The notes: generated by a model not told the origin, from the letters alone. Shown: positions 18,642 through 63,426, counted from the stretch's first letter. The stretch is DNA of 64,000 nt from Microgenomates group bacterium Gr01-1014_16 (GCA_007376345.1 VMGA01000002.1:8309-72308); one strand, 5' to 3'. Translations and numbers: made by a program.

Positions 18642-18714
18642 GGCTCCATCGTCTAGTGGCCTAGGACATCAGATTCTCATTCTGATAACCCCGGTTCAAA
18701 TCCGGGTGGAGTCA
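18642..18714 (+). tRNA. tRNA-Glu (anticodon CTC)
   Basis: Hand-folded cloverleaf. The acceptor is GGCTCCA / TGGAGTC (one G-U pair). The D-stem is GTCT / GGAC. The anticodon stem is TCAGA / TCTGA with loop TTCTCAT. The T-stem is CCCGG / CCGGG with loop TTCAAAT. The discriminator is A. Length 73 nt; CCA is not encoded. Confidence 0.8.
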
Positions 18715-39839: not shown

Positions 39840-39847
<8 letters not shown>

Positions 39848-41812: not shown

Positions 41813-41875
41813 TAAATCTTATAGTTAGCATAATTTACATTATTACGACGACCGCATAAATATTGTAAAAGTTGT

Positions 41876-42688: not shown

Positions 42689-42721
42689 ACTTAGGCTCTA
42701 TCTTATAGTACAATACTTATC

Positions 42722-42746
42722 TGCCCTTTCGGGGGTATTTTTTTTG
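42722..42746 (+). terminator. Weak rho-independent terminator after the surface protein gene
   Basis: gccc-tttc-gggg stem-loop followed by T9 (42737-42745). Confidence 0.35.
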
Positions 42747-42753
42747 TATCATT

Positions 42754-46755: not shown

Positions 46756-46774
46756 AAGAATTCGCTCCATCATT

Positions 46775-47425: not shown

Positions 47426-47426
47426 T

Positions 47427-48320
47427 ATGAAACCCACAGTCAGCATTGGTATTCCCGCCTACAATGAAGAGGCCAATCTCGGACACTTGCTCTCGGACTT
47501 GCAATCTCAAAAACAAACCGGTTTCAAACTCCAGGAAATCATTGTATCCTCTGACGCCAGCACCGACCAAACAGTAAGCATAGCCAAGAAATATTCTGGT
47601 TCTGGGGTCAAAATTTTGGACAACCAAGTTCGTCAAGGTCAAGCCGCCCGCCAGAACCAGATTATCGATCTGGCAAATTCCGACGTTCTTGTTTTGTTAA
47701 ACGCTGATATTTTAATCGAAGGTCGGGATTTTGTCTGGAGGTTAATCCAGCCCATAACAAACAATCATGCCGACCTCACTTCAAGTAATCTCCTGGCCCT
47801 TGCACCCAAGACTTTTATGGGCCAAGTCTTGTTTCATTCCCTAAAGCTTAGAAACGAAGTCTACAAAAAATATCATTTGGGACAAAATATTTATACTTGT
47901 CATGGCGCCGCCAGGGCGTTCTCCAAGAATCTGTACCAGAATTTTAGGTTCCAAAACAGCGTAGCAGAAGATGCTTACTCCTACCTTTACGCTATTTTCA
48001 AAGGATATAAATATCGTTATGTCGCAGATGCCATAGCTTACATTAGATGGCCAGAGTCGTTAATCGATCACGAGCGCCAAAGCTTGCGTTTCTTTCAATC
48101 TCAAAAAGTTCTCTCGTCCCAATTCGATCCCCAATTCGTCAGCGATCAATATAAATTACCGCCACTTGAGGTACTTAAAACCGTCGTCAAATTTTACCTT
48201 CAATATCCTATTCACGCTCTTGCCTATTCATTTATATTTTGGTTTATGTTTTGCAAATCATTTTTCAAACGGCCCATGGACACCTGGCAATCGTCTGTTA
48301 GTTCTAAGATTCTCAAGTAG
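47427..48320 (+). CDS. Glycosyltransferase family 2
   Basis: VSIGIPAYNEEANLGHLL...IIVSSDASTDQT...LLNADIL contains the GT2 DxD-type motifs. Confidence 0.8.
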   Translation: MKPTVSIGIPAYNEEANLGHLLSDLQSQKQTGFKLQEIIVSSDASTDQTVSIAKKYSGSGVKILDNQVRQGQAARQNQIIDLANSDVLVLLNADILIEGRDFVWRLIQPITNNHADLTSSNLLALAPKTFMGQVLFHSLKLRNEVYKKYHLGQNIYTCHGAARAFSKNLYQNFRFQNSVAEDAYSYLYAIFKGYKYRYVADAIAYIRWPESLIDHERQSLRFFQSQKVLSSQFDPQFVSDQYKLPPLEVLKTVVKFYLQYPIHALAYSFIFWFMFCKSFFKRPMDTWQSSVSSKILK

Positions 48321-48321
48321 T

Positions 48322-49122
48322 ATGAACAAACTTATCTTAGCCAGAAAGATTATCTATCCCGGATTGGGGATATTAGACAGCGTCCTTTTAAGACGCCCCG
48401 AAGGTATTACTATTTTTTGCTACCACAGCATCTCTTCAGACTCTTGGCGCTTTAGTGTGACTGCTCAAGAGTTTAAAAATCAGTTGGACTATCTTCTTAG
48501 CCATTTGCACCCAATTTCCCTTTCAGATGTCCATCAATATCTAAATAGAAAAAAAGAAATCTCTTCTCCTTCTTTCGTTTTAACCTTCGATGACGGATTT
48601 AAAGACTTGATGAGCGTAAAAGAACACGTCAAAAAATTAGGTATTAAGCCGACCATATTTGTTTTATCCCATCCGCAAAAAACCAACAAAACGGAATTGG
48701 GAACAAGTCAAGATTTATTAAAAGATAAAGATGTTTTTGCGCTTCATAAATCCGGTTGGGAAATTGGCTGTCACAGCGCTACCCACCCAGACTTTTTTTC
48801 CTTAACAAGTACAGATTTGAAGGAGGAAATAATTGAATCCAAAAAAACTTTGGAATCTAAATTAAATCTTCCTGTCGAGTACTTTGCTTACCCCAAAGGC
48901 CGATATTCACCCGCCGTTCTGGCCGCAGTTCAAAAAGCCGGATACCAGCTAGGTTTGACCATGGACGACGGGATTATTAGCCGAAATACAAACCCGCTCC
49001 TCTTGCCTCGGGTCGGTGTTGATGGTTCTCATTCGTTTGCCGAATTTACCTCATCTTTTTCCCCATCGGTTGTCAAATTGAGGGGAATGTTAAAAAGACG
49101 TAAAATAGGCCTTAATATATGA
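48322..49122 (+). CDS. Polysaccharide deacetylase (NodB homology domain)
   Basis: LTFDDGFKDL (the TFDDG motif) and GCHSATHPDF (the His-His metal site). The start is at MNKLILARK, just after the upstream stop. Confidence 0.75.
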   Translation: MNKLILARKIIYPGLGILDSVLLRRPEGITIFCYHSISSDSWRFSVTAQEFKNQLDYLLSHLHPISLSDVHQYLNRKKEISSPSFVLTFDDGFKDLMSVKEHVKKLGIKPTIFVLSHPQKTNKTELGTSQDLLKDKDVFALHKSGWEIGCHSATHPDFFSLTSTDLKEEIIESKKTLESKLNLPVEYFAYPKGRYSPAVLAAVQKAGYQLGLTMDDGIISRNTNPLLLPRVGVDGSHSFAEFTSSFSPSVVKLRGMLKRRKIGLNI

Positions 49123-50309
49123 CCAAATCGCATCGCGGTTCCATTGCGGTAGTCTCCAAATATTTTTACCCGGTTGCCGCCGGCATCGAAGTTAATGTTT
49201 TGGAAACTTATTCTGTACTCGCCGGTCTAGGTTGGGATGTGACCATATATACTTCTCGCGATACTCTGACCGAAAAAAGTGTCCTTCCACAAACGGATAA
49301 TATTCGGGGATTAAAAGTTATCCGTTACCCGTTTGCCAACGACTATTTTGGATACGTTCCCGAGATCAACTGGAAATCGGTGGACGTCGTATGTCTCCAT
49401 AATTTTAACGTCTTTCATTTCTGGATACTGCTCTATGTTGGTTGGTTCAAACTTCTCGGCCGCAAAAAATTTGCCCTGATTGTCACTCCACACGGCGCTT
49501 TCAACCCGGAATGGTCGATATATCCCAAATGGAGCATGGCTTTTCCCAAACAGCTCTACCACTACATTATCGGGACATTTTTTATGAACACTGTGGCAGA
49601 TAAAATGCGGGCTGTTTCCAATTGGGAAAGACAGGAGATCATCAACAAAGGAGTCCACCCTGACAAGGTCGAGGTTATCAGCAACGGCTTGGAGGATGAG
49701 GCTTATCAGGACATTGACAGTTTGGCTAGTTCACAAATTAAAGATCGAGTTAAAAAAATAGGTCGATACTTAATTCAAATTGGTCGCGTTTATCCCATAA
49801 AGAATTATGAAACCGTCATCAAGGCATTGCCAGACATACCTTCAGACGTTAAGTTTATAATAGCTGGTCCAATAGAGAGCAATTACAACGACACTTATTA
49901 CGCAGCCCTAAAAGATTTAATATCCAATCTCCATCTAGAAAATCGGGTAATTTTTTGGGGAGTAATTCGTGGGGTTGACAAATACTACCTCATTAAACAC
50001 GCCCAAATGATGGTCCACATGGCGCTGTGGGAAAGTTTTTGTAACGTCGTTCACGAAGGCATGAGCCAGGGTCTTGTTTGTATTGTGGCCAACAACACTG
50101 CTCTCCCGTATCTTGTTAAAAACGGTGTTAATGGCTATTTAATTGATACTCATGACTATGTCTCTCTAGCCAGAAAAATAAATTACACATTGGATCCAAA
50201 AAACTCTCGCGAAATTAAATTAATCCAAAGTTATAACACTAAGCACGGTCGGGACAATTCATGGCGTCAGGTGGCGCTTAAAATGGACAAGCTATACAAA
50301 AATTTATGA
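49119..50309 (+). CDS. Glycosyltransferase family 4 (group 1)
   Basis: IQIGRVYPIKNYETVIKAL...MVHMALWESFCNVVHEGMSQGLVCIVAN is the GT4 E...E region. It has an ATGA overlap with the upstream gene. Confidence 0.75.
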   Translation: MTKSHRGSIAVVSKYFYPVAAGIEVNVLETYSVLAGLGWDVTIYTSRDTLTEKSVLPQTDNIRGLKVIRYPFANDYFGYVPEINWKSVDVVCLHNFNVFHFWILLYVGWFKLLGRKKFALIVTPHGAFNPEWSIYPKWSMAFPKQLYHYIIGTFFMNTVADKMRAVSNWERQEIINKGVHPDKVEVISNGLEDEAYQDIDSLASSQIKDRVKKIGRYLIQIGRVYPIKNYETVIKALPDIPSDVKFIIAGPIESNYNDTYYAALKDLISNLHLENRVIFWGVIRGVDKYYLIKHAQMMVHMALWESFCNVVHEGMSQGLVCIVANNTALPYLVKNGVNGYLIDTHDYVSLARKINYTLDPKNSREIKLIQSYNTKHGRDNSWRQVALKMDKLYKNL

Positions 50310-50914
50310 AAAAACTCATCTATTCATTATTCCCCCTATACAGGTTTTTTTACCATCACCTTTCCATGGCCAAAATTAATGTGTACATGATGATTTTGGG
50401 GATGAAGATCAGATACCTTGGTCATCACTGTAGAATATATTTTGCCAATATGACCGAGCCCTACAATGTCTCAATCGGCCACCATGTCCATATAAACAAA
50501 AACTGCGAAATTATTACCACCGGCAGCCCTGTCGAAATCGGAAATTATGTCATGATTGGTCCAGGCGTCACTCTTGTGGCCCAAAACCACGACGTTTCAG
50601 ACTGGTCGATGCCCATGATTTTTAGCAATAAATACATTCGGGGAAAGGTTAAAATTGCTGATGACGTTTGGATAGGCGCTAATGCCACCGTCCTCTCCGG
50701 AGTCACGGTCAACAGGGGCGCAGTCATCGCGGCGGGAGCCGTCGTTACCAAAGATGTGGAGGCTTTTTCAATAGTCGGCGGCGTCCCAGCCCAAAAAATA
50801 AAAAGTCGTTTCCCTGTAGAAGTTATCAAAAAAGCTCATAAGGTAAACTTTAATAGTTTTGAAAACGCCGATATGAACTGGCGTAAATGGGGAGTGGGCA
50901 ATTATGCAAATTAA
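50306..50914 (+). CDS. Hexapeptide-repeat (left-handed beta-helix) sugar O-acetyltransferase
   Basis: Tandem [LIV]GxxxxI hexapeptides are present, for example IGNYVMIGPGVTLVAQNH and VWIGANATVLSGVTVNRGAVIAAGAVVTKDV. The pattern resembles WbbJ or maltose acetyltransferase. Confidence 0.7.
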   Translation: MKKLIYSLFPLYRFFYHHLSMAKINVYMMILGMKIRYLGHHCRIYFANMTEPYNVSIGHHVHINKNCEIITTGSPVEIGNYVMIGPGVTLVAQNHDVSDWSMPMIFSNKYIRGKVKIADDVWIGANATVLSGVTVNRGAVIAAGAVVTKDVEAFSIVGGVPAQKIKSRFPVEVIKKAHKVNFNSFENADMNWRKWGVGNYAN

Positions 50915-50926
50915 AAAAAATCAATT

Positions 50927-52456
50927 ATGAAGTATTTTCTATTGATCTTTTCTTTCATCATTCTCACGTTAAGCATCGCTGGGAGATGGGGGAATCCCTC
51001 CATTTCTATGCTAAACGATTCCGCCTCTCCATATACCAATGTCTTCGAGAACTCCTCACCACGGGCCAGATTTGCCCTAATCTATTCAATTCTTGAAAAC
51101 CGCTCTTTAGTATTTTCTTTACCTTTGGCCAAGTTCTCACTGCCTGACTTGGCAGTTCATGATGGTAATTATGTCTCTTTGTTTGCTCCGGGGACATCTT
51201 TTCTAGCACTACCGGGTTATGTAATAGGTAAAACCTTAGGGGCCTCACAGCTTGGTACTTACTCCATAGTCTCGATTTTTGCCATCCTCAATGTTTTTCT
51301 CATTTACCTTTTTCTACGAAATTTAGAGGTCAGCCCTTTAGCTTCTGCCTTAGCCGGTCTAATATTTCTTTTTGGCTCACCAGCATTTGCCTACTCTGTC
51401 ACTCTCTACCAACACCACTTTTCTACTTTTCTCCTCCTTGCAGCCTTACTCCTGGTCCAGCGCAAAACAAACTTTTTATCCTTATCTGTTGTTTGGTTTT
51501 TATCCTCTCTTTCCATTCTCATAGATTATCCCAATCTTTTTCTTATGGCTCCGGTAGCTTTATTTGCCCTGACTCGTTTGATAGACGTAAGCCATCTTAA
51601 AAGCCGATTAAAAATAAGCCTTCGCCCCTGGCATCTATTAACTTTTGTTGCAGTCATCCCTCCGCTTTTGGCGTTTCTGTGGTATAACAACTCAGCCAAT
51701 GGTGGCCTGTTTCGTCTCTCCGGCTCTTTGCGCCGCGTTGAAGCTATTGACCTCTCGGGTCAGCCCACTACCCCACGCCTTCTTGAACAGGGTCAAATTG
51801 AAAATTTTATCCAGTCTAACCCTGACAAAAAGAACACCGTAAATTTCTTCCGTACCCGCCGCCTCCTTGGTGGCTTTTACACTCATTTTATGAGTCTAGA
51901 CCGAGGTTTGATATTTTTTTCTCCAGTATTAGTTTTGTCAATTATTGGGGTCGGGATTCTAAATCAAAAAAGAAACCAACTATTAAACGTTCTTCTAGGA
52001 GTGTTGGGCGCCAATGTCATCATCTATTCCCTTTGGGGTGATCCCTGGGGGGGGTGGGCATTCGGTTCTCGGTACCTCATACCCAGCTACTCTATCCTGG
52101 CCATATTTTTGGGTATTGGTCTAGGACATTTTCATCGCCGTCTTTTAGTAATTTTACCGTTCCTGGTTCTTTCAGTCTACTCAATTGCTGTTAATACTCT
52201 TGGAGCTATAACGACAACCAACAATCCACCTCAAGTGGAAGTTCTGGCACTTGAAAAGGTCACTGGACGAGAGGAAAAGTACACCTGGGAACGAAATTGG
52301 GATTTTCTGATAACCAACGGCTCCAAGTCATTTGTCTTTCAAACTTATGCCAAAAATTATTTGACTGCCCCGCAATACTTTTACATTATCTCATGGGCGA
52401 TTGTCTCCGCGGTAATTTTACTTACCTATCGGCTTTACAGTTATGATAGTCCTTGA
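50927..52456 (+). CDS. Polytopic membrane protein, GT-C fold glycosyltransferase-like (ArnT / PMT / GT39-83-like)
   Basis: A 509-aa ORF with more than 10 TM helices and a periplasmic loop early. No catalytic motif could be assigned by eye. Confidence 0.4.
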   Translation: MKYFLLIFSFIILTLSIAGRWGNPSISMLNDSASPYTNVFENSSPRARFALIYSILENRSLVFSLPLAKFSLPDLAVHDGNYVSLFAPGTSFLALPGYVIGKTLGASQLGTYSIVSIFAILNVFLIYLFLRNLEVSPLASALAGLIFLFGSPAFAYSVTLYQHHFSTFLLLAALLLVQRKTNFLSLSVVWFLSSLSILIDYPNLFLMAPVALFALTRLIDVSHLKSRLKISLRPWHLLTFVAVIPPLLAFLWYNNSANGGLFRLSGSLRRVEAIDLSGQPTTPRLLEQGQIENFIQSNPDKKNTVNFFRTRRLLGGFYTHFMSLDRGLIFFSPVLVLSIIGVGILNQKRNQLLNVLLGVLGANVIIYSLWGDPWGGWAFGSRYLIPSYSILAIFLGIGLGHFHRRLLVILPFLVLSVYSIAVNTLGAITTTNNPPQVEVLALEKVTGREEKYTWERNWDFLITNGSKSFVFQTYAKNYLTAPQYFYIISWAIVSAVILLTYRLYSYDSP

Positions 52457-54041
52457 TATCCCCATTACTCCCATTCGAAATTTTTTCAACAAGTACGTTT
52501 TTTGGTTGATCACCATAACTCTGACGATTTTCTCGATCTTTTATTTTCTCAATTATTATTTCAACGGTCTGGGTCTGGCCTATAACGACGCCCGGTCGCA
52601 CCTCGATATTGGCAGAAGGGTTGTTGAGAGTCTCAAACCGGGACTGGCCCAACTGGGTTCCGTCTGGTTGCCCCTCACCCACTTGCTCATGGTTCCTACC
52701 GTTTGGAATGACTTTATGTGGCATTCCGGTCTGGCCGGAGCCATCCAGTCTATGGCCGGCTTTGTCGCCGCCGGCCTCCTCATTTATAAAATTCTGGAAA
52801 AACTAAGAGTTGGAACTCTTGGTCGTCTGGTTGGAGTTGCTGTCTTTGTCGCCAACCTCAACGTTTTGTATTTGCAATCTACGGCCATGACCGAACTGCC
52901 GCTTTTGGCCACTATGACCGCCGGCTGTTATTACCTCATCAAATGGCACCAAACCGACAATATTTTAGACGTCATCAAATCCGCCTTCTGGATCATGCTC
53001 TCTTCACTCATCCGTTACGACGGCTGGTTTTTATTTTTAGCCGCCGCCGGTTTGATTTTTGTCCGCCAGCTAAAGAAAAATGGCTACAAAACTGCCGAAG
53101 GCGCCATGATCCTATTCGCCACCCTGGCCGGCTTCGGCATCGCCCTCTGGTTTCTCTGGAACCAGTTAATTTTCAAAGATGCTCTCTACTTTGCCCTTGG
53201 TCCCTTTTCCGCCCGCGCCCAGCAGATCCAGTTAAGCAACGCCGGCAACCTGCCCAGCAAGTACAACCTCTTCCTGTCCACTAAAATTTATCTGTACGCC
53301 CTGTTTTACAACTCCTATACCCTGCCTGTCTTTTTGGCCCTGGCCGGCTTGGCTGTTCTCCTCTGGGACCGCCGCTTGCACTTTGACCTGCGTCTCTCTA
53401 CTTTGTCACTGCTCACGCCGCTTGTTTTCAACATTATTGCCATGTTTTTTGGTTTCTCCGTACTTTTTGTCCAGGGCATTTCCGGAGACACCTGGTTCAA
53501 CATCCGCTACGGCATCATGCTTGCCCCCGCGGTAGCGGTTTTTATAGGTATATTGATCGACCGGGTCAAATCCTTGCGTCCGGTGATTATCGGCCTTTTA
53601 GCCTTCGTTTTATTCTTCGCTTTTGCCAACCAGGACGCGGTCACAATTGACGACGCCCGTGTGGGATCCAGCCAGAAAAACGTTTCCGAAGTCGCTTCAT
53701 ATCTGGCCAAAAACGCCGCAGACCAGCCCGGCTTTATTCTCATCTCCGTCGCCTCTCATGACGCCATTATTTTCTCATCCGGTCTGCCCATATCCCGCTT
53801 TATCCACGAAGGCACCGGCGCCTACTGGACAGCGGCTACAACCGCTCCCGACCGCTGGGCCCGCTGGATCATCATGCGTACATATGACGACAACGATTTA
53901 GCCTGGAAATTCGTCTCCAAATCACCGGGCTTCAGGTTCTATTCTCTAGTGAATCATTATCCCTTTGCGGACGTCTACGAAATAGATCCGTCTCTGGTCG
54001 GCCAACTCCACACCGAACCGGTTTTCAAGAACCAGAAGTAA
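52443..54041 (+). CDS. Second polytopic GT-C-like membrane glycosyltransferase candidate
   Basis: A 532-aa ORF with more than 10 TM helices and the loop motif YNDARSHLDIGRR. The C-terminal PVFKNQK is encoded by a 20-nt stretch that is duplicated at 54729-54748. Confidence 0.4.
   Translation: MIVLDIPITPIRNFFNKYVFWLITITLTIFSIFYFLNYYFNGLGLAYNDARSHLDIGRRVVESLKPGLAQLGSVWLPLTHLLMVPTVWNDFMWHSGLAGAIQSMAGFVAAGLLIYKILEKLRVGTLGRLVGVAVFVANLNVLYLQSTAMTELPLLATMTAGCYYLIKWHQTDNILDVIKSAFWIMLSSLIRYDGWFLFLAAAGLIFVRQLKKNGYKTAEGAMILFATLAGFGIALWFLWNQLIFKDALYFALGPFSARAQQIQLSNAGNLPSKYNLFLSTKIYLYALFYNSYTLPVFLALAGLAVLLWDRRLHFDLRLSTLSLLTPLVFNIIAMFFGFSVLFVQGISGDTWFNIRYGIMLAPAVAVFIGILIDRVKSLRPVIIGLLAFVLFFAFANQDAVTIDDARVGSSQKNVSEVASYLAKNAADQPGFILISVASHDAIIFSSGLPISRFIHEGTGAYWTAATTAPDRWARWIIMRTYDDNDLAWKFVSKSPGFRFYSLVNHYPFADVYEIDPSLVGQLHTEPVFKNQK
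54021..54040. repeat. Direct repeat copy 1, gttttcaagaaccagaagta. Its partner is at 54729-54748
   Basis: 18 of 20 nt are identical between the copies. Each copy encodes a C-terminal PVFKNQK plus stop. The copies flank the HEPN/MNT cassette. Confidence 0.75.
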
Positions 54042-54063: not shown

Positions 54064-54447
54064 ATGAAAGACGAAGCTAAAATCTGGTTGGAGCAAGCAG
54101 AAGACAGTCTAAAAGATGCCGAATATCTTTATACAGGATCCCGCTACTCAATGGCCGTTTACTGCTGCCATCAGGCCCTCGAAAAAATCCTTAAAGCTTG
54201 CATAATCCAGTTTGCTAACCAGCTTCCTCCAAAATCGCACAATCTCGACGCTCTTGCCCGTCAAACCACGCTTGAGTTTCCTGATAGCTGGCTGGAAGAC
54301 CTAGCCGAAATCACTCACCATTTTTGGCGCGTCCGTTATCCGGACTTCCAGAAATTTGTTTACACCTCCAAAGAATCAGTCAAGCCTACCTACGATAAAA
54401 CTAAAGAGGTTTTTATATGGATAAAACAACACTTACCACAGATATAA
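54064..54447 (+). CDS. HEPN domain protein (HepT-like toxin candidate)
   Basis: MAVYCCHQALEKILKACII...PKSHNLDAL is the HEPN pattern (QA.EK.LKA....H.L). An Rx4-6H-type RVRYP...H region is also present. Confidence 0.6.
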   Translation: MKDEAKIWLEQAEDSLKDAEYLYTGSRYSMAVYCCHQALEKILKACIIQFANQLPPKSHNLDALARQTTLEFPDSWLEDLAEITHHFWRVRYPDFQKFVYTSKESVKPTYDKTKEVFIWIKQHLPQI

Positions 54448-54749: not shown

Positions 54750-54758
54750 GTGGAATTC

Positions 54759-56012
54759 ATGAAAAAATTTCTTTCGTCACTGATAATTCTATTTCTTGTT
54801 TCTGTTACTGTTACTGTGCCCGCCGAAGCCGCAGGCGAAGGCCGGGCTGTTTGGTGGCAGTTCCAATCCATCGACACTATGAAATATTCCCGGGACATAG
54901 CCCGTGAAAAACTCAAGGATTCCTCTTTTGACACCTCTATTGATTTGCAGGTCAAAAACATCGCCGCCACCGGCGCCACTCATGTAGCCATTGCCACTCC
55001 ATATGACGAAGAATTTATTCCTTTTTTGACCCGCTGGGTAAACGCCGCCCGCAAACACAAGCTCAACATCTGGTTCCGCGGTAATTTTTCCGGTTGGGAA
55101 AACTGGTTTGACTATCCGGAAATTTCTCGGGAAGAGCATCTGGCCAAAACCAAAACCTTTATTACCAAAAATGCCGGATTATTTCAAAACGGCGACGTTT
55201 TCACAGCCTGCCCGGAGTGTGAAAATGGCGGACCGGGCGATCCCCGCCAGACAGGAGATGTAGAAGGTCATCGTCAATTTCTTATAGACGAATTTGTGAC
55301 CACCCAGCAGCTTTTTCGTAACATGGGGAAAAATGTCCGGTCTAATTATTTCTCTATGAACGGCGACATGGCCAAAGCCATCATGGACAAAGAAACTACC
55401 ACTGCCCTCGGCGGTATCGTGACTATCGATCATTACGTCGCTTCACCCCAAAAATTGGTCAAAGATATCCAAAATCTTGCCCATCAGTCCGGAGGTAAAA
55501 TAATACTAGGTGAATTCGGTGCCCCGATTCCGGATATTCACGGCTCAATGTCCCAGGACCAGCAGGCTAAATGGCTGAATGACGCTTTCAAGCTTTTAGT
55601 TTCCACTCCGGAATTAGTCGGCATTAATTATTGGACCAACGTCGGCGGGTCCACCCAGCTCTGGACAGAAAACTATGAGCCCAAAAAAGCCGTTGATGTC
55701 GTTACTTTCTATTTCTTTCCCAAAACCGCCCGAGGCATCGTGAATGACGTTTTCGGTTCCACCATAAAAAACGCACAAGTTTCTTCATCACATAAGACTG
55801 TTTATGCCAACTCAGCCGGAAATTTTCAACTACCATATATTGACTCCTCCGATCCTCTTTCCGTGTCTGCCAAGAATTATATCTCCAAAGAATACAATAA
55901 TTACTCAAGTGATAAAAACATCGAAGTTTACTTATCTCCTATCCGAAAAGGAATACTTTTTAGACTCAAACTCTTGACTTATAGGCTTCTTGGTCGTAAA
56001 ATACATGGTTAG
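54759..56012 (+). CDS. Secreted TIM-barrel glycoside-hydrolase-like protein (GH5-like, tentative)
   Basis: A signal peptide (MKKFLSSLIILFLVSVTVTVPAEA), and IILGEFGAP (a GExG nucleophile-like region) with CPECENGGP upstream. The assignment is by pattern only. Confidence 0.35.
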   Translation: MKKFLSSLIILFLVSVTVTVPAEAAGEGRAVWWQFQSIDTMKYSRDIAREKLKDSSFDTSIDLQVKNIAATGATHVAIATPYDEEFIPFLTRWVNAARKHKLNIWFRGNFSGWENWFDYPEISREEHLAKTKTFITKNAGLFQNGDVFTACPECENGGPGDPRQTGDVEGHRQFLIDEFVTTQQLFRNMGKNVRSNYFSMNGDMAKAIMDKETTTALGGIVTIDHYVASPQKLVKDIQNLAHQSGGKIILGEFGAPIPDIHGSMSQDQQAKWLNDAFKLLVSTPELVGINYWTNVGGSTQLWTENYEPKKAVDVVTFYFFPKTARGIVNDVFGSTIKNAQVSSSHKTVYANSAGNFQLPYIDSSDPLSVSAKNYISKEYNNYSSDKNIEVYLSPIRKGILFRLKLLTYRLLGRKIHG

Positions 56013-56514
56013 TGAAGCTAAAACTTCTGTTAGCTTCTGCCCTTTTCTTTGTCGCTTCGGCGACTTCTGCTGTACTTCCCCTTCCGGATCCGTCAAAGTC
56101 AGCTACGATTCCGGCATTCATGGCGTTCCCGGCGACTTGGGTGAGTACATCGGCAGTGATATCGTCTACACCGTCTCCGATACCACCCTAGTTCAGTGCT
56201 TTTGTGCCGTTTCGGGTTCCGGTATCCAAACCAACTGGTGGAGGGACAACAGCCTTTCCCAATCTCAAATCGACCAACTAGTTAGTGACGGCTGGATCTA
56301 TATTCCCGATGGTTCTGCCTGGGGCCTGGATTCTGTTCCCTATCTGGCCAAAAACAGTAGCTATAATTGTGACGGTCCGGCAGCTGCCGGGGGCGGACAG
56401 GTGCTTGGTTTAGCTACAACCGGTAATTCAACTCTTCTCTACACCATGCTTGCCCTCGGCGGATTAACTCTTATTCTGGCCATTCTCTCCCGCCGCCGGA
56501 ATCAACGTGCTTAA
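56012..56514 (+). CDS. Sortase-substrate-like surface protein whose signal peptide and body lie in different frames (possible frameshift or pseudogene)
   Basis: A GTG at 56012 opens the frame (M)KLKLLLASALFFVASATSAVLP, a clear signal peptide, which stops at about 56192. The overlapping ORF in the 55990 frame carries the body and the C-terminal sorting signal LATTGNSTLLYTMLALGGLTLILAILSRRRNQRA (LPXTG-like, hydrophobic, basic tail). A CCCC run at 56079-56082 is a candidate slip site. Confidence 0.35.
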
Positions 56515-56959
56515 ACTCCTCTCATTATTCTTCTTTGCTTGTTCGGCCTTTCTTATCTGGCAGCGTAATGTCCCATTACCCCCAGCGCCAGTTCCAACTT
56601 CACTTTCTCAACCTGTTTCACTCTCTTTACCGGAGCTGGGCATTTCTCTTCCGGTTCTGACAGAACCCCTTACACCCAAAGGCGTCACCTACGAACCTCA
56701 CGGTAACAACCTCGTCTTCTACGGCCACAACTGGCCAAATATTTTAAAGCCCTTTCAAAAAGCCCGGGTCGGCCAAACAATCATCATTGGCTACGCCGAC
56801 GGGTCGTCTAAACACTTCGAAATCAAAACTCTCTCCGTCGTCTCCGGCACTGATATTTCTGTCTTACAACCTACAACTTACAACCAACAACTAATTTTAT
56901 ATACCTGCACCGGCTTTCTCGACCGCGACCGCCTCGTCGCCACCGCCACCCCGATTTGA
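56507..56959 (+). CDS. Sortase family transpeptidase (short form)
   Basis: An N-terminal TM anchor, VFYGHNWP (His), LILYTCTG (the TLxTC catalytic Cys) and DRDRLVATA (Arg). It overlaps the substrate-like gene by 8 nt. Confidence 0.6.
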   Translation: MLKLLSLFFFACSAFLIWQRNVPLPPAPVPTSLSQPVSLSLPELGISLPVLTEPLTPKGVTYEPHGNNLVFYGHNWPNILKPFQKARVGQTIIIGYADGSSKHFEIKTLSVVSGTDISVLQPTTYNQQLILYTCTGFLDRDRLVATATPI

Positions 56960-56982: not shown

Positions 56983-57447
56983 ATGAATATTCTGGTTGTC
57001 CTGGCCCTGACCCTGTTTTTGGCTGGCGGCTTTTTTCGCCAAACAAAAGCCATTTCTTCTCCTTCCGTTCCCACATCCACACCCACACCTTTCAGCTCGC
57101 CGGCCTTGCCTGCCGGCAGGCAGGAGCCAACGGCGGAGGCGGCCACCCCCATTCCCACTACTCCAGTTACAGTTACACCCCCGTCAGTTACATCGGATTG
57201 GCAATACCCGGGCGGCAGTCAAATTTCCGCCGGCGTTTACGAAAGTTCTGACCCCTCGGACAAAATAACCGATTGGTACCAGGACAAAATTAAGCAGCTC
57301 GGGTTAAATACCAAGACTTTTGTCCGCACCAAGACCAACGATCGCGTTCTCAACAAATTAGTCGCGGCAGGCATTTCTACAGAGATCAGGGTGGAAATTT
57401 CCAAAAATCCCTCCGACTCTTTAACCCGGATCACAGTCGACTATTGA
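56983..57447 (+). CDS. Hypothetical secreted protein
   Basis: A signal peptide followed by a Pro/Thr-rich linker. No recognisable motif. Confidence 0.35.
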   Translation: MNILVVLALTLFLAGGFFRQTKAISSPSVPTSTPTPFSSPALPAGRQEPTAEAATPIPTTPVTVTPPSVTSDWQYPGGSQISAGVYESSDPSDKITDWYQDKIKQLGLNTKTFVRTKTNDRVLNKLVAAGISTEIRVEISKNPSDSLTRITVDY

Positions 57448-57498: not shown

Positions 57499-58131
57499 AT
57501 GACTACTCGTACCCTCAAACTCACCGAATTTTTTTCCTCTCTCCGTCGGTTGCGCCGGATTCCATTTAAAAAGTATCTTCCCCAATCTATAGTAGTTATT
57601 ACTGTCGCGATAACCCTTGGCCTCGTTGTCAAACTACTTACCCGCCCATCCCGGACCTCGTCTACCTCTTCAGTTCCCGCTTCCGATTCCCGGATTTCCA
57701 TTTTGGGCGCCAGAGCCTCCTCCCAGCTAAACCAAGAATTTTCCTTTCCTCTCAACTCTTCTGCCGGTTCTAAACTCACCGATATTAAATTCATTCTCGA
57801 ATCTGCCGAGCTCCGCGACGAAATCATTGTCAAAGGCAAACGGGCCACGGCTGTCCAAGGTCGGACCTTTCTCATCCTCAATCTCAAAATCTCAAGCGCC
57901 TATTCCCGGGCCTTAAATATCAACACCCAGGATTATTTCCGCCTGACCATGAATGACAAACCCGACCAGCTCTTGGCTCCTGATATTCACAACGATCCGG
58001 TTGTTGTCCAGCCGATTTCAACTAAACTCGCCCGTTTGGGCTTCCCCGTAAACGACACCGACAAAAATCTTACCCTCTGGGTGGGCGAGGTGGCCGGCGA
58101 AAAAACCCAGATCGACCTCAACTTGCAATGA
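57499..58131 (+). CDS. Hypothetical membrane-anchored protein (DUF4352-like beta domain)
   Basis: An N-terminal TM anchor followed by GKRATAVQGRTFLILNLKISS...DYFRLTMNDKPDQLLAP, an Ig-like DUF4352-style pattern. Confidence 0.35.
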   Translation: MTTRTLKLTEFFSSLRRLRRIPFKKYLPQSIVVITVAITLGLVVKLLTRPSRTSSTSSVPASDSRISILGARASSQLNQEFSFPLNSSAGSKLTDIKFILESAELRDEIIVKGKRATAVQGRTFLILNLKISSAYSRALNINTQDYFRLTMNDKPDQLLAPDIHNDPVVVQPISTKLARLGFPVNDTDKNLTLWVGEVAGEKTQIDLNLQ

Positions 58132-58322
58132 AAAAAACCTTAACCAACGAGATCCTTGCCTCTCTGGCTTCTGTGCAGGGTTACGGCAGTGTGGAAATTT
58201 TCGTTCACGACAGCAAAGTTACCCAGATTACCGTTAGAAATATCAAAAAAACCAACTCCCCGGTCCCAACTAACGGCCATCGCGTGAAAATGACTCTTGA
58301 CAAACCTATCTCATTATATTAA
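58128..58322 (+). CDS. Small DUF2292 (YezD)-like protein
   Basis: GYGSVEIFVHDSKVTQITVRNIKK matches the DUF2292 core GfGsvei.v.dgkvv.ie. It has an ATGA overlap with the upstream gene. Confidence 0.35.
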   Translation: MKKTLTNEILASLASVQGYGSVEIFVHDSKVTQITVRNIKKTNSPVPTNGHRVKMTLDKPISLY

Positions 58323-58382: not shown

Positions 58383-58452
58383 CGGAGGCTTCTCTGTCCA
58401 AAGCACTTATTAAATTATAGGTGTATTTGGATCGAGGAGCCTCCGCTTTTTT
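58383..58452 (+). terminator. Long-loop hairpin followed by T6 after the DUF2292 gene
   Basis: cggaggcttctc (58383-58394) pairs with gaggagcctccg (58434-58445), followed by ctttttt. Confidence 0.35.
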
Positions 58453-58475: not shown

Positions 58476-58491
58476 CCCCTAAGCTTAGGGG
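58476..58491. promoter_or_regulatory. Perfect 16-bp palindrome CCCCTAAGCTTAGGGG, 35 bp upstream of the repeat-protein gene
   Basis: Read from the sequence. It is followed by aaagggggtga (SD-like) 12 nt before ATG 58527. Confidence 0.4.
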
Positions 58492-58526: not shown

Positions 58527-59798
58527 ATGACTACATTTAGAAAACAAATAGTAGCTGCAGTTTCCGCCTCTGTCATGTTTTTAAGCATGGCCGCCCCGGT
58601 TTTTGCAGAAACTACCATAGTAATTTCCGGCAATGGAGCCAATTCGGATAGCAAAAGTGATGTCCAGTTTACTGGCGACACGACTGTTACCCAAACCAAC
58701 CAGGCTTCCATTTCCAACAACATTGACGCAGACGCTGATACCGGCAAAAACGACGCCAACCAGAATACGGGAGGCTCGGTTTTGGTCAAAACCGGTGACG
58801 CGACAACTGGTGTCAGTGTAGAAAACGTGGTCAACAGCAACCAGGCTTCTGTAGATTGTTGCACCGCTGGCGATACGGATATCGAAATCTCCGGCAACGG
58901 AGCTGATACGAAAAACGATGTCAAGCTCAAAAACGACGCTGACGTCTCTCTGTACCAGACCAACGAGGCTGATATTTACAACCGGGTTGATGCCGACGCC
59001 GATACGGGCAAAAACGATGCCAACCAGAATACGGGTGGCGATGTTGAAGTCAGGACAGGTGACGCCTCTACTTGGGTTGGGGTATCCAATACCGCCAACG
59101 CCAACTGGGCACAAATCGGAGACGGTGGCCAGGGCTCACTTTCCGCAAGGATTTTGGGCAATGGTTTCAATTCGGACAACAAAATAGATTTGGATTTGGA
59201 CAATGACACCACTTTGGTGCAAACCAATTTGGCGGACATCACCAACTACATCTATGCGGACGCTGATACAGGCAAAAACGACGCCAACCAGAATACGGGT
59301 GGCAGCGTTCTAGTCGATACTGGTGATGCCGAAACCGGTGTAGAAGTCGACAATTTGGTCAACTTCAACTGGGCCGATGTTGATTGCGGTGGCTGCGTCT
59401 TGGACCTTTTGGCCAAGGTAGCCGGCAACGGTGCTGATACGAAAAACGAGATCAAGCTCAAGCTTGATAACGATTTGGAAGTTTATCAGACCAACGTATG
59501 CGGTGACGAGGGACGGCCCTGGTTCGAACTTTGGGATTACCAAGGTTATGAAGAGGATTGTTCAACTCGCGTTGACGCAGACGCTGATACCGGCTCTAAC
59601 GACGCCAACCAAAACACTGGCGATCCGGAAGGGGATCCTTCCGTCTTAACCGGCGATTCTGCCTCGTTCGTCGAGGTGAGTAATTCCGGCAACGTCAACT
59701 CTTATGGAGTTGGTGGAGGAGAGTGGCCCGACTTTGATTTTGAGTTCAACCTTTCGTTGAACTTAAATGACTTGTTGAGCTTGCTCGACTTGATCTAA
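58527..59798 (+). CDS. Secreted protein built from four ~70-aa Asp-rich repeats
   Basis: A signal peptide (MTTFRKQIVAAVSASVMFLSMAAPVFA), then four repeats of the form GNGA(N/D)(S/T)..N....QTN.A.I.N..DADADTGKNDANQNTGG.V.V.TGDA.T.V.V.N. Confidence 0.6.
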   Translation: MTTFRKQIVAAVSASVMFLSMAAPVFAETTIVISGNGANSDSKSDVQFTGDTTVTQTNQASISNNIDADADTGKNDANQNTGGSVLVKTGDATTGVSVENVVNSNQASVDCCTAGDTDIEISGNGADTKNDVKLKNDADVSLYQTNEADIYNRVDADADTGKNDANQNTGGDVEVRTGDASTWVGVSNTANANWAQIGDGGQGSLSARILGNGFNSDNKIDLDLDNDTTLVQTNLADITNYIYADADTGKNDANQNTGGSVLVDTGDAETGVEVDNLVNFNWADVDCGGCVLDLLAKVAGNGADTKNEIKLKLDNDLEVYQTNVCGDEGRPWFELWDYQGYEEDCSTRVDADADTGSNDANQNTGDPEGDPSVLTGDSASFVEVSNSGNVNSYGVGGGEWPDFDFEFNLSLNLNDLLSLLDLI

Positions 59799-59864
59799 GG
59801 CTATATCTTGTGGGGTGGATCCGCTAGCACTTCAGCGGGACACCCTGCAAGTATAGAAAAAAAT

Positions 59865-61988
59865 ATGAAACTAAAAAAACTATTATCAATAATTGCCCTG
59901 ACGGCACTGTTTACAGTCCAGATTCTGCCTGTCTCTGCCCAGGAGGCTCCGCCCCAACCGCCTACTGCCCCCACCGCCCCGGTTGCGCCTACAGCCCCGC
60001 CCGCTCCTACTGCTCCTACCGCTCCTACTCCACCCCCGCCGCCCCCGCCACCTTTGCCCGCCGAAGCCTTGGCGGAGGAGGGTCCTTCCCCCACCGAAGT
60101 CCCCACTGCTTCTACCCAGTCAGAAGAGCCAACGAGCCTTCCCGAGGAAACTAGTGGCCAAACCCAGGACGGAAATTCAGGAGACACCAATATTACAACC
60201 GGCGACGCTAACAACTCCGGTGTAGTAGTGAGCGAGGCCAACAATAATTTATTGGCCGACTCCGGCCCCGGCATCCTGGAAGTGGTCAATGAGGGTAACG
60301 GTGCCGAGTCCCAAAATACCGGTTCAGTCACCGTAGCCGAGACGAACACTTCGGTTCAACAAAATGAAGCCGAGGTCCAAAATAATCTCGATTTAGGCAG
60401 CGTTACCGGCCAAAATTCAGCCTCTTACACTACCGGCGGCGACGCCAATATCAAAACCGGCGACGCCAACGTTTCCGGAACTGCCATTACCGCCGTAAAC
60501 ACCAATGTGGACGCCGTTTCCGTCTCCGAATTCAATATCGCCGACAACCACGTCGGAGACTATATTTTGGATTTTGCCGCCAACTGTGTCTCGGGTTGCA
60601 GCTCGGGTGATGCCGTCGCCAAAAATTCCGGCAATGGAGCCAACTCCGTCAACGACGCCGATATTTCCCAAGACGTAAATAACCTCGACTTCCAGTCCAA
60701 CTCGGCCACCGTCGGCAACTCCATGATCCTAAATGCCGACTCCGGCGCCAACCAGGCCAACTACCAAACCGGCGGGGATTCCAATATTACAACCGGTGAC
60801 GCCAACGTTTCCGCGTCCTCGCTGACTTTGGCCAATAACAACTTGAGTGGCAACGTCATTTACGGCGTAGTCAATATTTATGGGGACTTGATAGGGGACA
60901 TTATCTTTCCCGAGGAAGCCCTGGCCGGCTGCTGCGCTTCTTCGGCTACAGCTGCCAATATAGGAAACGGAGCTGATTCGACCAACACCGCCAACATCGA
61001 TTCCACTCTCACCGACTCCACCATCCAGAGTAACGACGTGGTTATCGAAAACACCCTCGTTCTGGACGCCGATACCGGTGCCAATAAGACTTCCGGCAAT
61101 ACCGGCGGCGACTCCGCCATTTCTACGGGCGATTCCAACGTTACCGCCCAGGTCTTAAACGTCGCCAATTCCAACATTTCCGGCGGTACCTGGTGGCTGG
61201 TTTTGGTCAACGAAGCCGGCCAGTGGATAGGCCGCATTTTAGGCGCACCCGTTGGCGCCAATTATGCCGGCTCGGCTGACACCCAATTCACAGTCGGCCA
61301 GTCCGGAGAAATTACCGCCGTCAACTCCGGCAACGGTTCCGGCTCCACCAATGATGCCAATGTCTCCCAAACCACGACTAACACCACGGTCCAGACAAAT
61401 TCCGCTACCGTCCAAAACGACCTGAAATTAACTGCCAACACCGGCGGTAATTCTGCTTCTTACAATACCAACGGCGATTCCAATATCCAAACCGGCGACG
61501 CCACTATCATGGCCAATATCGTCAACTTTGTGAACAACAATGTCACCGGCGGCGGCAAATTATTTGTCACAGTCGTCAACGTCTTTGGCAGCTGGCTAGG
61601 TGACTTTGTCACTCCCGGCAGCCATAAAACACCTCCAGTCGCAGAAGTTCCCGCACCCGCCCCAGAACCAGCTGTTGGCGGGGCCGAAATTCCTGCCGTC
61701 CAATCTTCTACATCTAATCCCTCTGATTCCTCTAATTCATCTAACTCCTCTCCTTCCGTTGCTTCCGTATCAGTTCAATCCCGCGTCATCCGCCGCCGCG
61801 TCGCCGGCCTTTCCACCTCTTTCCCTTCAGTCGAATCTCCAGTCCTCGCGTCCGAATCCGTTGTTTCTCCCGACCCCGGTCCCGCCCGCAATAAAGTTCG
61901 CATCAACCTCGCCTGGCTCCTTTTAGGCCTCCCCTTACTCCTGCCCGTTTACCTCCGCTTCCGCCGTCCCCGCATCGTCCAGGTTTGA
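59865..61988 (+). CDS. Secreted paralogous repeat protein with a Pro-rich linker, four ~75-aa GNGA.S...QTN/QNN...TGG..NI.TGDANV repeats and a C-terminal hydrophobic plus basic tail
   Basis: The start is at MKLKKLLSIIALTALFTV. The linker is QEAPPQPPTAPTAPVAPTAPPAPTAPTAPTPPPPPPPP. The repeats are separated by VVN..G.W.G.I segments. The C-terminus is LAWLLLGLPLLLPVYLRFRRPRIVQV. Confidence 0.6.
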   Translation: MKLKKLLSIIALTALFTVQILPVSAQEAPPQPPTAPTAPVAPTAPPAPTAPTAPTPPPPPPPPLPAEALAEEGPSPTEVPTASTQSEEPTSLPEETSGQTQDGNSGDTNITTGDANNSGVVVSEANNNLLADSGPGILEVVNEGNGAESQNTGSVTVAETNTSVQQNEAEVQNNLDLGSVTGQNSASYTTGGDANIKTGDANVSGTAITAVNTNVDAVSVSEFNIADNHVGDYILDFAANCVSGCSSGDAVAKNSGNGANSVNDADISQDVNNLDFQSNSATVGNSMILNADSGANQANYQTGGDSNITTGDANVSASSLTLANNNLSGNVIYGVVNIYGDLIGDIIFPEEALAGCCASSATAANIGNGADSTNTANIDSTLTDSTIQSNDVVIENTLVLDADTGANKTSGNTGGDSAISTGDSNVTAQVLNVANSNISGGTWWLVLVNEAGQWIGRILGAPVGANYAGSADTQFTVGQSGEITAVNSGNGSGSTNDANVSQTTTNTTVQTNSATVQNDLKLTANTGGNSASYNTNGDSNIQTGDATIMANIVNFVNNNVTGGGKLFVTVVNVFGSWLGDFVTPGSHKTPPVAEVPAPAPEPAVGGAEIPAVQSSTSNPSDSSNSSNSSPSVASVSVQSRVIRRRVAGLSTSFPSVESPVLASESVVSPDPGPARNKVRINLAWLLLGLPLLLPVYLRFRRPRIVQV

Positions 61989-62061: not shown

Positions 62062-63426
62062 ATGCGCCGTCCTGCCCTCGGTATTCTGATTATTGTCATC
62101 GGAACTGTCTCGATTCTCCGCCTGACATCGGCCTTTTTCTCCGACACCGAAACCTCCTCCGACAACACTCTCCAAGCCGGCGAACTTGATTTAAAGATCG
62201 ATAATACAAGCTATTACAACGAGGCCTCCAGTTCAGCCACCACCTGGCCATCGGACAATCTTCCCGGCCATCTTTTCTTCGATTTTAATGATCTAAAGCC
62301 CGGCGACCGGGGCGAAGACACTATTAGCCTGTCAGTCCAAAATCCCGCCTGGGCCTGCATGAAAATCAAGATCACCCAAAACACCGACGAAAGTTGTACC
62401 GAACCGGAAATCATCAACGATCCTAGTTGTCCTGACACCGGCGACCTGGCTCAACAACTCAACTTCGTCTTCTGGGCCGACGACGGCGACAACATCCATC
62501 AACTTAATGAACCCGTTATCAAAGAGGGGACTGCATCAGCAATTTTTAATGACGATACCTGGACGTTGGCTGATTCATTGTTCAGTGTCTGGCCCACCCC
62601 TGGGCCTATTCCCGCCAGCGAGACCCGTTACATAGGTAAGTACTGGTGTTTCGGCATACTATCTCCGTCAGCCAATCCTCCAGGCTTCTCTTGTGACGGC
62701 CAAAATCTAAATAACTCCGCCCAGTCGGACAAGGTTATGGCCGATGTGGAATTTACCGCCATCCAATCCCGCCACAACCCCGGTTTTTTATGCAATGGCA
62801 GTATCACTCCCACCCCTCCCATCATCTCTCCCACTATCACCCCCACTCCAACTCCCTTAGCCTGTAACCAAGCCGACGTTATGCTCGTTCTCGATCGCTC
62901 CGGCAGTATCAACTCAACTGAATTGGCTCAGCTCAAAACCGCCTCCAAAGCCTTTGTGGACGACCTCGGCCTGTCTTCGTCCGGCATCCACGCTGGCATG
63001 TCCAGTTTTGCCACCTCCGGCACTCTTAACCACATTCTCTCGTCCAACTCAATCACCATCAAAGCCGCCATCGACCTGCTTGTTTCGGGTGGGTTTACCA
63101 ATCTCAAATCAGGCATTGACATAGCAGCCGGCGAGTTAGCCGGAGTTAACGACCGCCCCGACGGTTCCTCGCCGGATAAAATGATTGTGATAACCGACGG
63201 CCACCCCAACCGTCCCCTGCCCGAATCCACCGCCGATGACGTTGCTGCTACTTCCGCCGATGCGGCCCGCGCCGCCGGCTCCGAAATCTTTGTCGTGGGC
63301 GTCGGCTCCGACGTGGACGCAACATATCTCCAAAACGAAATTGCCGACGACGCCGGCCACTACTTCCCTATTTCAAATTACAGCGACCTGCAAACCGCGT
63401 TACAAAATCTCGACCTATGCGATTAA
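62062..63426 (+). CDS. TasA/camelysin-like (SipW-cognate signal peptide) protein fused to a C-terminal von Willebrand factor A domain
   Basis: The N-terminus LRLTSAFFSDTETSSDNTLQAGELDLK is the SipW-cognate-class signal / peptidase M73-like pattern AFFSDTE...N.f.aG.LdL. The C-terminus DVMLVLDRSGSI is a VWA MIDAS DxSxS motif, with further MIDAS residues downstream (TDG...). Confidence 0.6.
   Translation: MRRPALGILIIVIGTVSILRLTSAFFSDTETSSDNTLQAGELDLKIDNTSYYNEASSSATTWPSDNLPGHLFFDFNDLKPGDRGEDTISLSVQNPAWACMKIKITQNTDESCTEPEIINDPSCPDTGDLAQQLNFVFWADDGDNIHQLNEPVIKEGTASAIFNDDTWTLADSLFSVWPTPGPIPASETRYIGKYWCFGILSPSANPPGFSCDGQNLNNSAQSDKVMADVEFTAIQSRHNPGFLCNGSITPTPPIISPTITPTPTPLACNQADVMLVLDRSGSINSTELAQLKTASKAFVDDLGLSSSGIHAGMSSFATSGTLNHILSSNSITIKAAIDLLVSGGFTNLKSGIDIAAGELAGVNDRPDGSSPDKMIVITDGHPNRPLPESTADDVAATSADAARAAGSEIFVVGVGSDVDATYLQNEIADDAGHYFPISNYSDLQTALQNLDLCD

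Follow-up and report, generated by a model that had tools for sequence, protein, structure and literature searches.

Results

Genes A and B, adjacent on the + strand of a 64-kb window (the whole stretch of DNA that was analysed) from Microgenomates group bacterium Gr01-1014_16, encode two secreted paralogues composed of tandem copies of a β-hairpin repeat. The host is represented by a metagenome-assembled genome of the Microgenomates group within the candidate phyla radiation (CPR, or Patescibacteria), and the repeat family is previously undescribed and CPR-wide. Our proposal, which we hold with about even confidence, is that both belong to an envelope family specific to the CPR, A as its free and B as its membrane-tethered member, and that they co-assemble into an acidic surface polymer. 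The original prediction had described A and B as extracellular, paralogous and repetitive proteins of an undescribed family, plausibly forming a surface structure, and to that extent it is borne out; its calcium-binding loops and β-roll fold are not, and the TasA-like neighbours that it cited proved uninformative. Overall, it is confirmed in part.

Architecture of the two proteins

A and B align by BLASTP with an E-value of 1e-26, and hhalign of the two orthologue alignments gives a probability of 100 and an E-value of 1.3e-41, with repeats R1 to R4 collinear between the proteins. The repeats were delimited with a hidden Markov model (HMM) built from the eight window repeats (four in A and four in B). 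Each protein contains four full repeats, the number that had been predicted, with domain scores of 72–101 bits that lie far beyond chance, and B has an additional N-terminal half repeat. Run over the window, the HMM gave no match outside A and B, and neither of the paralogues C and D described below was found there.

The repeat had been estimated at about 70 residues, which is too short. The core common to the A and B repeats is 83–85 residues; the period is 88 residues in A (GNG at residues 35, 123, 211 and 300) and about 110–120 residues in B (GNG at residues 144, 256, 367 and 489). The longer period of B arises because a hydrophobic insert follows each of its repeats. AlphaFold2 (AF2) predicts strands in these inserts, with a predicted local distance difference test (pLDDT) score of 70–86. 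In A, repeat 4 carries an 18-residue insertion within strand 2.

The motif DADADTGKNDANQNTGG occurs in A as two exact copies and two near-exact ones, YADADTGKNDANQNTGG and DADADTGSNDANQNTGD; the B stretches that correspond to it (LDLGSVTGQNSASYTTGG, LNADSGANQANYQTGG, LDADTGANKTSGNTGG and LTANTGGNSASYNTNG) are degenerate. The Asp-rich core, described as strictly conserved, is thus conserved within A of the window but not in B. What is invariant in all eight repeats is GNG, Q.N, G.N, T.G, TGD and N.N, not the Asp residues. In 48 A orthologues, the Asp positions of DADAD are Asp in 41–75% of cases, the alternatives being N, S, K, E and Y, whilst the Ala residues between them and the flanking N, G, N and N-T-G-G are 62–100% conserved. 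Seven Asn residues are near-invariant in the repeat as a whole. No tandem repeats were found in A at the DNA level, and the motif copies differ by 3–9 synonymous codons per pair, which argues that the motif is kept by selection on the protein and not just by recent homogenisation. Recent gene conversion as the sole cause of the motif identity in A is ruled out by these synonymous differences.

Conserved Cys clusters (CC, C..C or C...C) are found at repeat ends in A (residues 111–112, 287 and 290) and B (residues 241, 245 and 356–357), as well as in C and D, the latter with a single CGC cluster. Judged from the sequences, these cysteines may be linked in disulfides between repeats or between molecules, or may bind a metal.

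Fold of the repeat

We compared AF2 models of A and B with a mean-field direct coupling analysis (DCA) of 2133 unique repeat units from 504 family proteins (85 positions; effective number of sequences, Meff, 1818). The strongest couplings in this independent test trace an antiparallel ladder, i+j = 105–108 (pairs 26-79, 28-77, 32-74, 34-72/74, 36-70/72, 40-68, 42-64/66, 44/45-62 and 49-57/59), and a second, small ladder (3-16, 3-18 and 5-16) surrounds the GNG loop. The AF2 models are all-β and their strands coincide with the DCA strands. The tip of the long hairpin is NTGG (positions 52–55), with the TG of strand 2 placed by DCA opposite the TG of TGDA; in B, the distal hairpin half around TG.N.A..NTGG...I.TGDA is modelled with a pLDDT of 90–97. 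Each repeat would then comprise a small hairpin around the invariant GNG loop, followed by a long antiparallel β-hairpin with an invariant NTGG tip. AlphaFold had been expected to return a β-roll or β-helix. Instead, both AF2 and DCA give long antiparallel hairpins, there was no HemolysinCabind match, and the β-helix and β-roll entries in a Foldseek search of the PDB were insignificant (template-modelling score, TM, ~0.05; E >0.1). Nothing at E ≤0.001 was found by Foldseek with either model against the PDB, or with the B model against BFVD.

The two faces of the hairpin differ sharply. All ladder-coupled positions lie on the even face, which in strand 2 has an entropy of 1.52 bits and is 1% charged and 53% hydrophobic or small; the odd face of the same strand has an entropy of 3.33 bits and is 36% charged. 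The conserved uncharged face contains many Asn, Gln, Ala and Val residues and probably lies buried. The opposite face is variable and strongly charged, and in A it is the one that bears DADAD: these Asp residues occupy odd positions 39, 41 and 43, within strand 2 by both DCA and AF2 (positions 39–43). Given this location on the variable strand face and their partial conservation, the Asp motif is best read as an exposed strand face rather than a metal-ligand loop.

Two groups of DCA couplings misfit a straight 24-residue hairpin: those from the tip (positions 51, 53 and 57) to the GNG loop (8–10), and those among N30, G45, N47, G62 and N75. Two explanations would fit: a fold-back of the ribbon near 37–39 and 67–70, or docking of the tips onto the GNG loops of whichever repeat or subunit comes next. 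When adjacent repeats were paired, the strongest off-diagonal inter-repeat coupling was between position 51 of repeat n and position 10 of repeat n+1.

Covariation of the hairpin tips

Position 51 is the residue before NTGG (the Q of ANQNTGG in the window; A residues 79, 167, 255 and 362) and position 10 is the residue next to GNG (A residues 38, 126, 214 and 303). In 106 of 184 A-type proteins the four repeats all have the same residue at position 51, where 3.5 such proteins would be expected. The residue differs, however, between orthologues, where D, R, K, Q, Y, F, H and E are all found, in patterns such as DDDD, RRRR, KKKK, QQQQ and DRDR. Position 10 covaries with it: S or T accompanies D, D accompanies R, and A accompanies K, R, Y, Q or F.

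The class of residue at position 51 is also matched between A and B of the same genome, with a mutual information of 0.77 bits that was equalled in none of 5000 shuffles, in a comparison that ignores kinship. Basic tips go with basic ones in 17 of 17 loci and aromatic with aromatic in 16 of 18; an acidic residue in A is mostly accompanied by a basic or polar one in B. The pattern might reflect a code for self-recognition, a ligand common to both proteins or gene conversion acting locally. Taken together with the invariant end loops, the tip covariation points to specific contacts, among repeats as well as between the two proteins.

Export, anchoring and further paralogues

Both proteins have Sec-type N-termini, as predicted, and would be exported by Sec; A27 of A is invariant among its orthologues and A25 of B in a 50-sequence alignment. 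Both are acidic: the net charge is about −54 for mature A, in which Asp and Glu make up 18% of residues, and about −46 for mature B. At its C-terminus A has neither a transmembrane segment nor an LPXTG sortase signal in the sequence or the orthologue alignment, but only a conserved tail, of which residues 413–422 are predicted by AF2 to form an amphipathic helix. B ends, as had been noted, in a hydrophobic helix (AF2 residues 682–699) followed by RFRRPR. In this anchor region N681 is invariant and L682, A683, W684 and P690 are at least 90% conserved in the 50-sequence alignment. There is no LPXTG in B, and an NCBIfam scan of its tail gave no anchor match. The predicted poly-Pro linker of B exists, but it is N-terminal (residues 26 to ~65, right after the signal peptide) and not beside the C-terminal anchor; AF2 assigns no secondary structure to the Pro-rich region (pLDDT ~50–55, falling below 50 at residues 61–92).

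To place A and B among their relatives we used 83 Microgenomatia loci (L001–L083) gathered with an A-based profile. A scan with the repeat HMM revealed two more paralogues, C and D, in most of them (for example L001 13470–14054, L002 13632–14252 and, on the − strand, L054 9670–10287; equivalents occur in most of L004–L083). C lies directly downstream of B and has two forms. The three-repeat form (~390 residues) ends in LPx[TS]G, a hydrophobic segment and RLRSGRSP in 39 of 51 cases, as read from the sequence, and the one-repeat form (~200 residues) carries an xGLSAxAG-type signal in 11 of 13, similar to the VLGLATTG of the window's ORF 55990–56514. TIGR01167 did not match the C signals, and the only matches were sub-threshold ones to an LPXTG surface-protein family (21–22 bits). 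D is encoded on the opposite strand and has ~200 residues, two repeats, a signal peptide and a near-neutral isoelectric point (~7.4). The family therefore comprises free forms (A and D), a membrane-anchored form (B) and, probably, a wall-anchored form (C). The link to a sortase that had been drawn from the neighbouring sortase gene appears to hold at the level of the family, through C, and not for A and B themselves, which have no sortase signal.

Distribution of the family and of the locus

Neither A, B nor their single repeats match a Pfam or NCBIfam family, and searches of PDB sequences with single sequences and profiles found no related entry, in agreement with the prediction that the repeat belongs to no described family. 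Other family architectures with 6–10 repeats had no Pfam match either. We found no description of the A/B repeat family in the searchable literature on sortases, TasA, S-layers, amyloid or LPXTG proteins of CPR, Microgenomates or Patescibacteria. The orthologue search that the prediction had recommended returned at least 654 homologues of A and at least 578 of B, both lower bounds, with ~45–60% identity and all annotated 'hypothetical'. The repeat profile matches 2954 clusters at 50% identity, 576 of them with E <1e-30. Architectures include four repeats (~420 residues), five repeats (~500 residues), the B type (700–800 residues) and a few proteins with 8–10 repeats. Within Microgenomatia the sources are Ames-, Woese-, Gottesman-, Levy-, Davies- and Chisholmbacteria, and the repeat is also found in Parcubacteria, Andersenbacteria and Woykebacteria. 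A pair of a short and a long paralogue recurs in Parcubacteria, where the short one is poly-acidic. Many GTDB records with the cluster (L004, L006, L013, L016 and others) are titled 'uncultured Gammaproteobacteria bacterium'; their gene content points to Microgenomatia, and the titles look like placeholder mislabels.

The gene order p210-DUF2292-A-B is conserved, with the four components present in 82, 72, 83 and 83 of the 83 loci, respectively. The interval between DUF2292 and A contains a hairpin of very high stability with a T-run after it (window, about −42 kcal/mol; median over the loci, −35.6, at ~97 nt upstream of the A homologue). An equivalent element was found in 76 of 82 related loci, compared with 8 of 80 in a coding control. 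From its sequence it may act as a strong terminator, or it may stabilise the mRNA or have a regulatory role; the only Rfam matches were to miRNA-hairpin models, spurious and sub-threshold. Few loci (13 of 83) have a terminator-like element between A and B, and with the hairpin so common before A, A-B looks like a transcription unit of its own. A 16-nt perfect palindrome, CCCCTAAGCTTAGGGG, stands at 58476–58491, directly 5′ of the ribosome-binding site of A.

A model for the surface structure and its alternatives

In our model, B would be held in the membrane by its C-terminal helix, with the long low-complexity stalk spanning the wall. The unanchored A would be retained by repeat-to-repeat co-assembly with B and, in most relatives, also with C and the small, neutral D. 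The result would be a polyanionic polymer on the cell surface, organised either as a fibre or as a lattice, with the GNG and NTGG loops at the repeat ends serving as docking surfaces. Invariant loops at both ends of a repeat are unusual for a purely monomeric β protein. The data show the paralogy, the repeat anatomy with its hairpin contacts, the signals for export and anchoring, the conserved operon, the anchored paralogues and the tip covariation between A and B; that the proteins physically co-assemble and polymerise, and what their loops do, we infer.

Several points weigh against this proposal. Polymerisation, and likewise the abundance and localisation of A and B, are inferred. The AF2 models have moderate confidence (mean pLDDT 62 for A and 67 for B). 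Some DCA couplings touch near-invariant positions, where degenerate repeats may have produced artefacts; the paired-repeat DCA is dominated by same-position couplings, which shared ancestry could also explain, and does not settle the sheet topology. Repeats 1 and 3 of A share a 29-nt identical run, such that local gene conversion could explain part of the identity within a protein, and the A-B tip match takes no account of kinship. The acidic, hydrophilic surface is unlike that of hydrophobic amyloids such as chaplins. Finally, with C and D absent from the window, the anchoring scheme here rests on B.

A bolder form of the proposal, which we regard as doubtful though worth stating, is that A and B (with C and D) form the chief protein polymer in the envelope of Microgenomatia and other CPR bacteria, and possibly account for the regular surface layer seen on ultra-small groundwater cells. 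In it, NTGG tips would dock onto the GNG loops of a new β-hairpin-repeat fold, and the uniform tip residue (D, K, R, Q, F, Y or H), whose class A and B have in common, would be a lineage-specific self-recognition code.

A coat without polymerisation is unlikely in our judgement. A, B, C and D would be independent polyanionic brushes, soluble, membrane-bound or wall-bound and not in ordered co-assembly, substituting for teichoic acids in buffering cations or shielding against phage. This fits the conserved acidity, the placement of paralogues at different envelope depths (transmembrane, LPxTG and free) and the envelope glycosyltransferase genes nearby in the window. However, A is unanchored and would diffuse off unless bound, the invariant end loops and A-B tip covariation indicate specific contacts, and a conserved uncharged face requires a partner or a closed core.

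A functional amyloid like curli or Fap, that is, a cross-β or β-solenoid fibre with B or C as cell-bound nucleator, seems to us distinctly unlikely. As with CsgA/CsgB and FapC/FapB, imperfect repeats with conserved Gln, Asn, Gly and Ala, the near-invariant Asn residues among them, make up a secreted major subunit that is paired with cell-associated paralogues. FapC was also the first Foldseek match for both models and CsgA the second for A, although with a best E-value of 2.8e-3 and TM scores of 0.04–0.12 these are not significant and are a lead only. The repeat itself is different: an 85-residue unit with an intra-repeat antiparallel ladder, in contrast to the short strand-arc-strand rungs of ~22 or 37 residues in the β-solenoids of CsgA and FapC. 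Neither sequence nor structure is significantly similar, the surface carries a high charge, and these organisms are monoderm-like, without the CsgG or FapF outer-membrane machinery.

The original prediction read DxDxD(T)G...ND as Ca2+-binding loops of a β-roll or β-helix fibre; on this reading Ca2+ would drive folding or assembly. We consider this very unlikely, and it is the reading least compatible with the data. Its appeal is understandable: Asp/Gly/Asn-rich repeated motifs in secreted acidic proteins recall the RTX β-roll and its DxDxDG loops, A is extremely acidic, as is the short Parcubacteria paralogue, and each of the four repeats retains VDADADTG.NDAN.NTGG in the majority consensus of A orthologues. 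A surface of such acidity is likely to bind cations non-specifically. But the Asp residues are only partly conserved, with K, Y, N or S in their place, and are not conserved in B; they lie on a strand face, not in a loop; and the Gly stands at position 7 of the motif rather than 6. The period of 85–88 residues is not the nonapeptide periodicity of RTX, and PF00353 did not match at E ≤1 with whole A and B or at E ≤10 with single repeats, nor did any other calcium-binding family.

Lastly, a role as host-attachment adhesins of an episymbiont, with repeats binding host cell-wall polymers and tip residues setting host specificity, has a slim chance: these are presumed surface proteins, CPR bacteria are thought to live as episymbionts, and a position 51 that is hypervariable between lineages and uniform within a protein is expected of a multivalent ligand site, but ~50% identity across class-level lineages with a strictly conserved architecture would be uncommon among adhesins, organisms of many habitats carry the same cluster, and the common tip chemistry of A and B would, if only a host ligand were involved, require both to bind that one ligand.

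Genomic surroundings of A and B

The features of both genes and of the adjoining genes are collected in Table 1.

Table 1. Coordinates of genes A and B, their parts and their neighbours in the window
Feature	Coordinates	Strand	Basis or remark
Sortase-substrate-like open reading frame (ORF), VLGLATTG + transmembrane segment + RRRNQR; not a repeat protein	55990–56514	+	context
Sortase	56507–56959	+	PF04203, E 8e-13; context
p154, small secreted or membrane protein with Pro/Thr linker	56983–57447	+	tblastn match in 42/83 loci
p210, single-pass membrane protein with extracellular β domain, weakly DUF4352-like	57499–58131	+	82/83 loci
DUF2292 (YezD-like) small protein without signal peptide	58128–58322	+	PF10055, 31.9 bits vs cutoff 22; 72/83 loci
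Very stable hairpin + T-run, terminator-like, between DUF2292 and A	58383–58452	+	z −5.65
Gene A, secreted, unanchored four-repeat protein, 423 residues	58527–59798	+	ORF; 100% identical to a protein of a Microgenomates metagenome-assembled genome; at least 654 homologues
A signal peptide, residues 1–27, cleavage after VFA (APVFA/ETT)	58527–58607	+	sequence; AF2 helix, residues 4–19
A repeat 1, residues 30–112	58614–58862	+	HMM domain, 87 bits
A repeat 2, residues 118–197	58878–59117	+	HMM domain, 92 bits
A repeat 3, residues 206–288	59142–59390	+	HMM domain, 101 bits
A repeat 4, residues 296–395	59412–59711	+	HMM domain, 80 bits; insertion seen in repeat alignment
A conserved C-terminal tail, E.P.FDF.FN.S..L..LL.LL	59712–59795	+	orthologue alignment; AF2
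Gene B, membrane-tethered paralogue, 707 residues from MKLKK	59865–61988	+	mechanical ORF begins earlier, at TTG 59808
B signal peptide, residues 1–25 (LPVSA/QEA)	59865–59939	+	sequence; AF2 helix, residues 2–18
B Pro-rich N-terminal linker, residues 26–93	59940–60143	+	sequence, alignment, AF2
B N-terminal half repeat (distal hairpin half, HMM positions 42–79)	60144–60254	+	HMM; AF2 pLDDT 88–95
B repeat 1	60279–60524	+	HMM domain, 77 bits
B hydrophobic insert after repeat 1, VSEFNIADNHVGDYILDF..C..GC	60525–60611	+	kept in B orthologues, absent from A
B repeat 2	60618–60860	+	HMM domain, 72 bits
B repeat 3	60948–61196	+	HMM domain, 80 bits
B repeat 4	61311–61553	+	HMM domain, 87 bits
Further B inserts of similar kind	60861–60947, 61197–61310, 61554–61619	+	
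B low-complexity Ser/Pro/Ala stalk, residues 586–675	61620–61889	+	pLDDT <50 at residues 596–674
B K..INLAW motif + transmembrane helix + basic tail RFRRPR	61890–61985	+	alignment; AF2 helix, residues 682–699
TasA/camelysin-like N-terminal domain + C-terminal VWA, SipW-type N-terminus	62062–63426	+	context
Second TasA/camelysin-like gene, runs off the window, 320 residues in L087	63497–64000	+	context

The setting between a sortase and TasA-like genes had been offered as support for an extracellular fibre or matrix locus. The genes are indeed there, a sortase upstream and two TasA-like genes downstream, both of the latter with SipW-type N-termini (AFFSDTETS). A sortase is often near in related loci, at variable positions. 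TasA-like genes, however, occur within 8 kb of A-B in only ~8 of the 83 Microgenomatia loci (and again near the short and long pair in the Parcubacteria locus L085), and we dropped the adjacency as a functional clue since it is not conserved. TasA/camelysin fibres, with TapA, do resemble our proposal in combining a secreted fibre subunit with an accessory anchoring protein. A and B themselves are not homologous to TasA and do not match PF12389, whereas the two downstream genes do.

Of the genes upstream, p154 precedes p210 in all but about four of the loci that have it, and 4 of 12 p210 orthologues match PF11611 (best E 8e-4). The sortase-substrate-like ORF starts at a TTG without an evident signal peptide and overlaps the end of a 420-residue gene (54750–56012). 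Its homologue in L002 (6910–7761) has a signal peptide and an fn3 domain, and from this comparison the window ORF may be truncated or its start mis-assigned.

Further upstream, 39840–54041 is a block of cell-envelope genes: FtsX and a PcsB-like M23 peptidase (39840–41812), a 1333-residue fusion of glycosyltransferase families 2 and 4 (GT2 and GT4; 42754–46755), a methyltransferase, a GT2, a polysaccharide deacetylase, a GT4, a hexapeptide acyltransferase and two large multi-pass membrane proteins without a Pfam match (50927–52456 and 52443–54041). A HEPN protein (PF05168, 83 bits; 54064–54447) overlaps a minimal nucleotidyltransferase (MNT; PF01909; 54417–54749) by ~30 nt, and by domain content the two look like a HEPN-MNT toxin-antitoxin pair among the envelope genes. 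The only above-threshold Rfam match in the window is a tRNA gene (18642–18714).

Relation to known envelope systems and significance

The closest organisational parallel is with the chaplins of Streptomyces (ChpA-H). Chaplins are paralogues with one β-rich domain, of which long sortase-anchored and short secreted forms with conserved Cys pairs co-assemble on the cell surface. In the present family, similarly, C has an LPxTG-type motif, B has a transmembrane anchor, A and D are free, and Cys residues are conserved; free and probably sortase-anchored paralogues occur together in related loci, whilst in the window there are only A and B. The domain is nevertheless unrelated: A and B match no Pfam family, chaplin included, the repeat has 85 rather than ~40 residues, and the surface is polar and acidic, not hydrophobic.

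With the S-layer proteins of monoderms, A and B have in common that they are acidic secreted envelope proteins, and the conserved, possibly strong terminator before A and its apparent transcription unit would suit a highly expressed structural gene, as for an S-layer. Unlike S-layer proteins, they have no SLH or CWB2 anchoring domain in Pfam and NCBIfam scans, there are several paralogues with transmembrane and probable sortase anchors, and the conservation is unusually high.

CPR bacteria account for much of bacterial diversity, but hardly anything is known of what their envelope consists of, and the majority of the proteins that they secrete are annotated as 'hypothetical'. The analysis corrects a tempting but wrong annotation of A and B as calcium-binding-loop proteins. 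It defines a repeat family found throughout the radiation, with ~3000 clusters at 50% identity, a clear signature and a fold backed by predicted contacts, and a conserved module of p210-DUF2292-A-B plus C and D, in which the free, membrane-anchored and probably sortase-anchored paralogues suggest a surface polymer. The repeat provides a sequence marker for annotating thousands of proteins, and targets for metaproteomics, cryo-electron tomography labelling and heterologous assembly.

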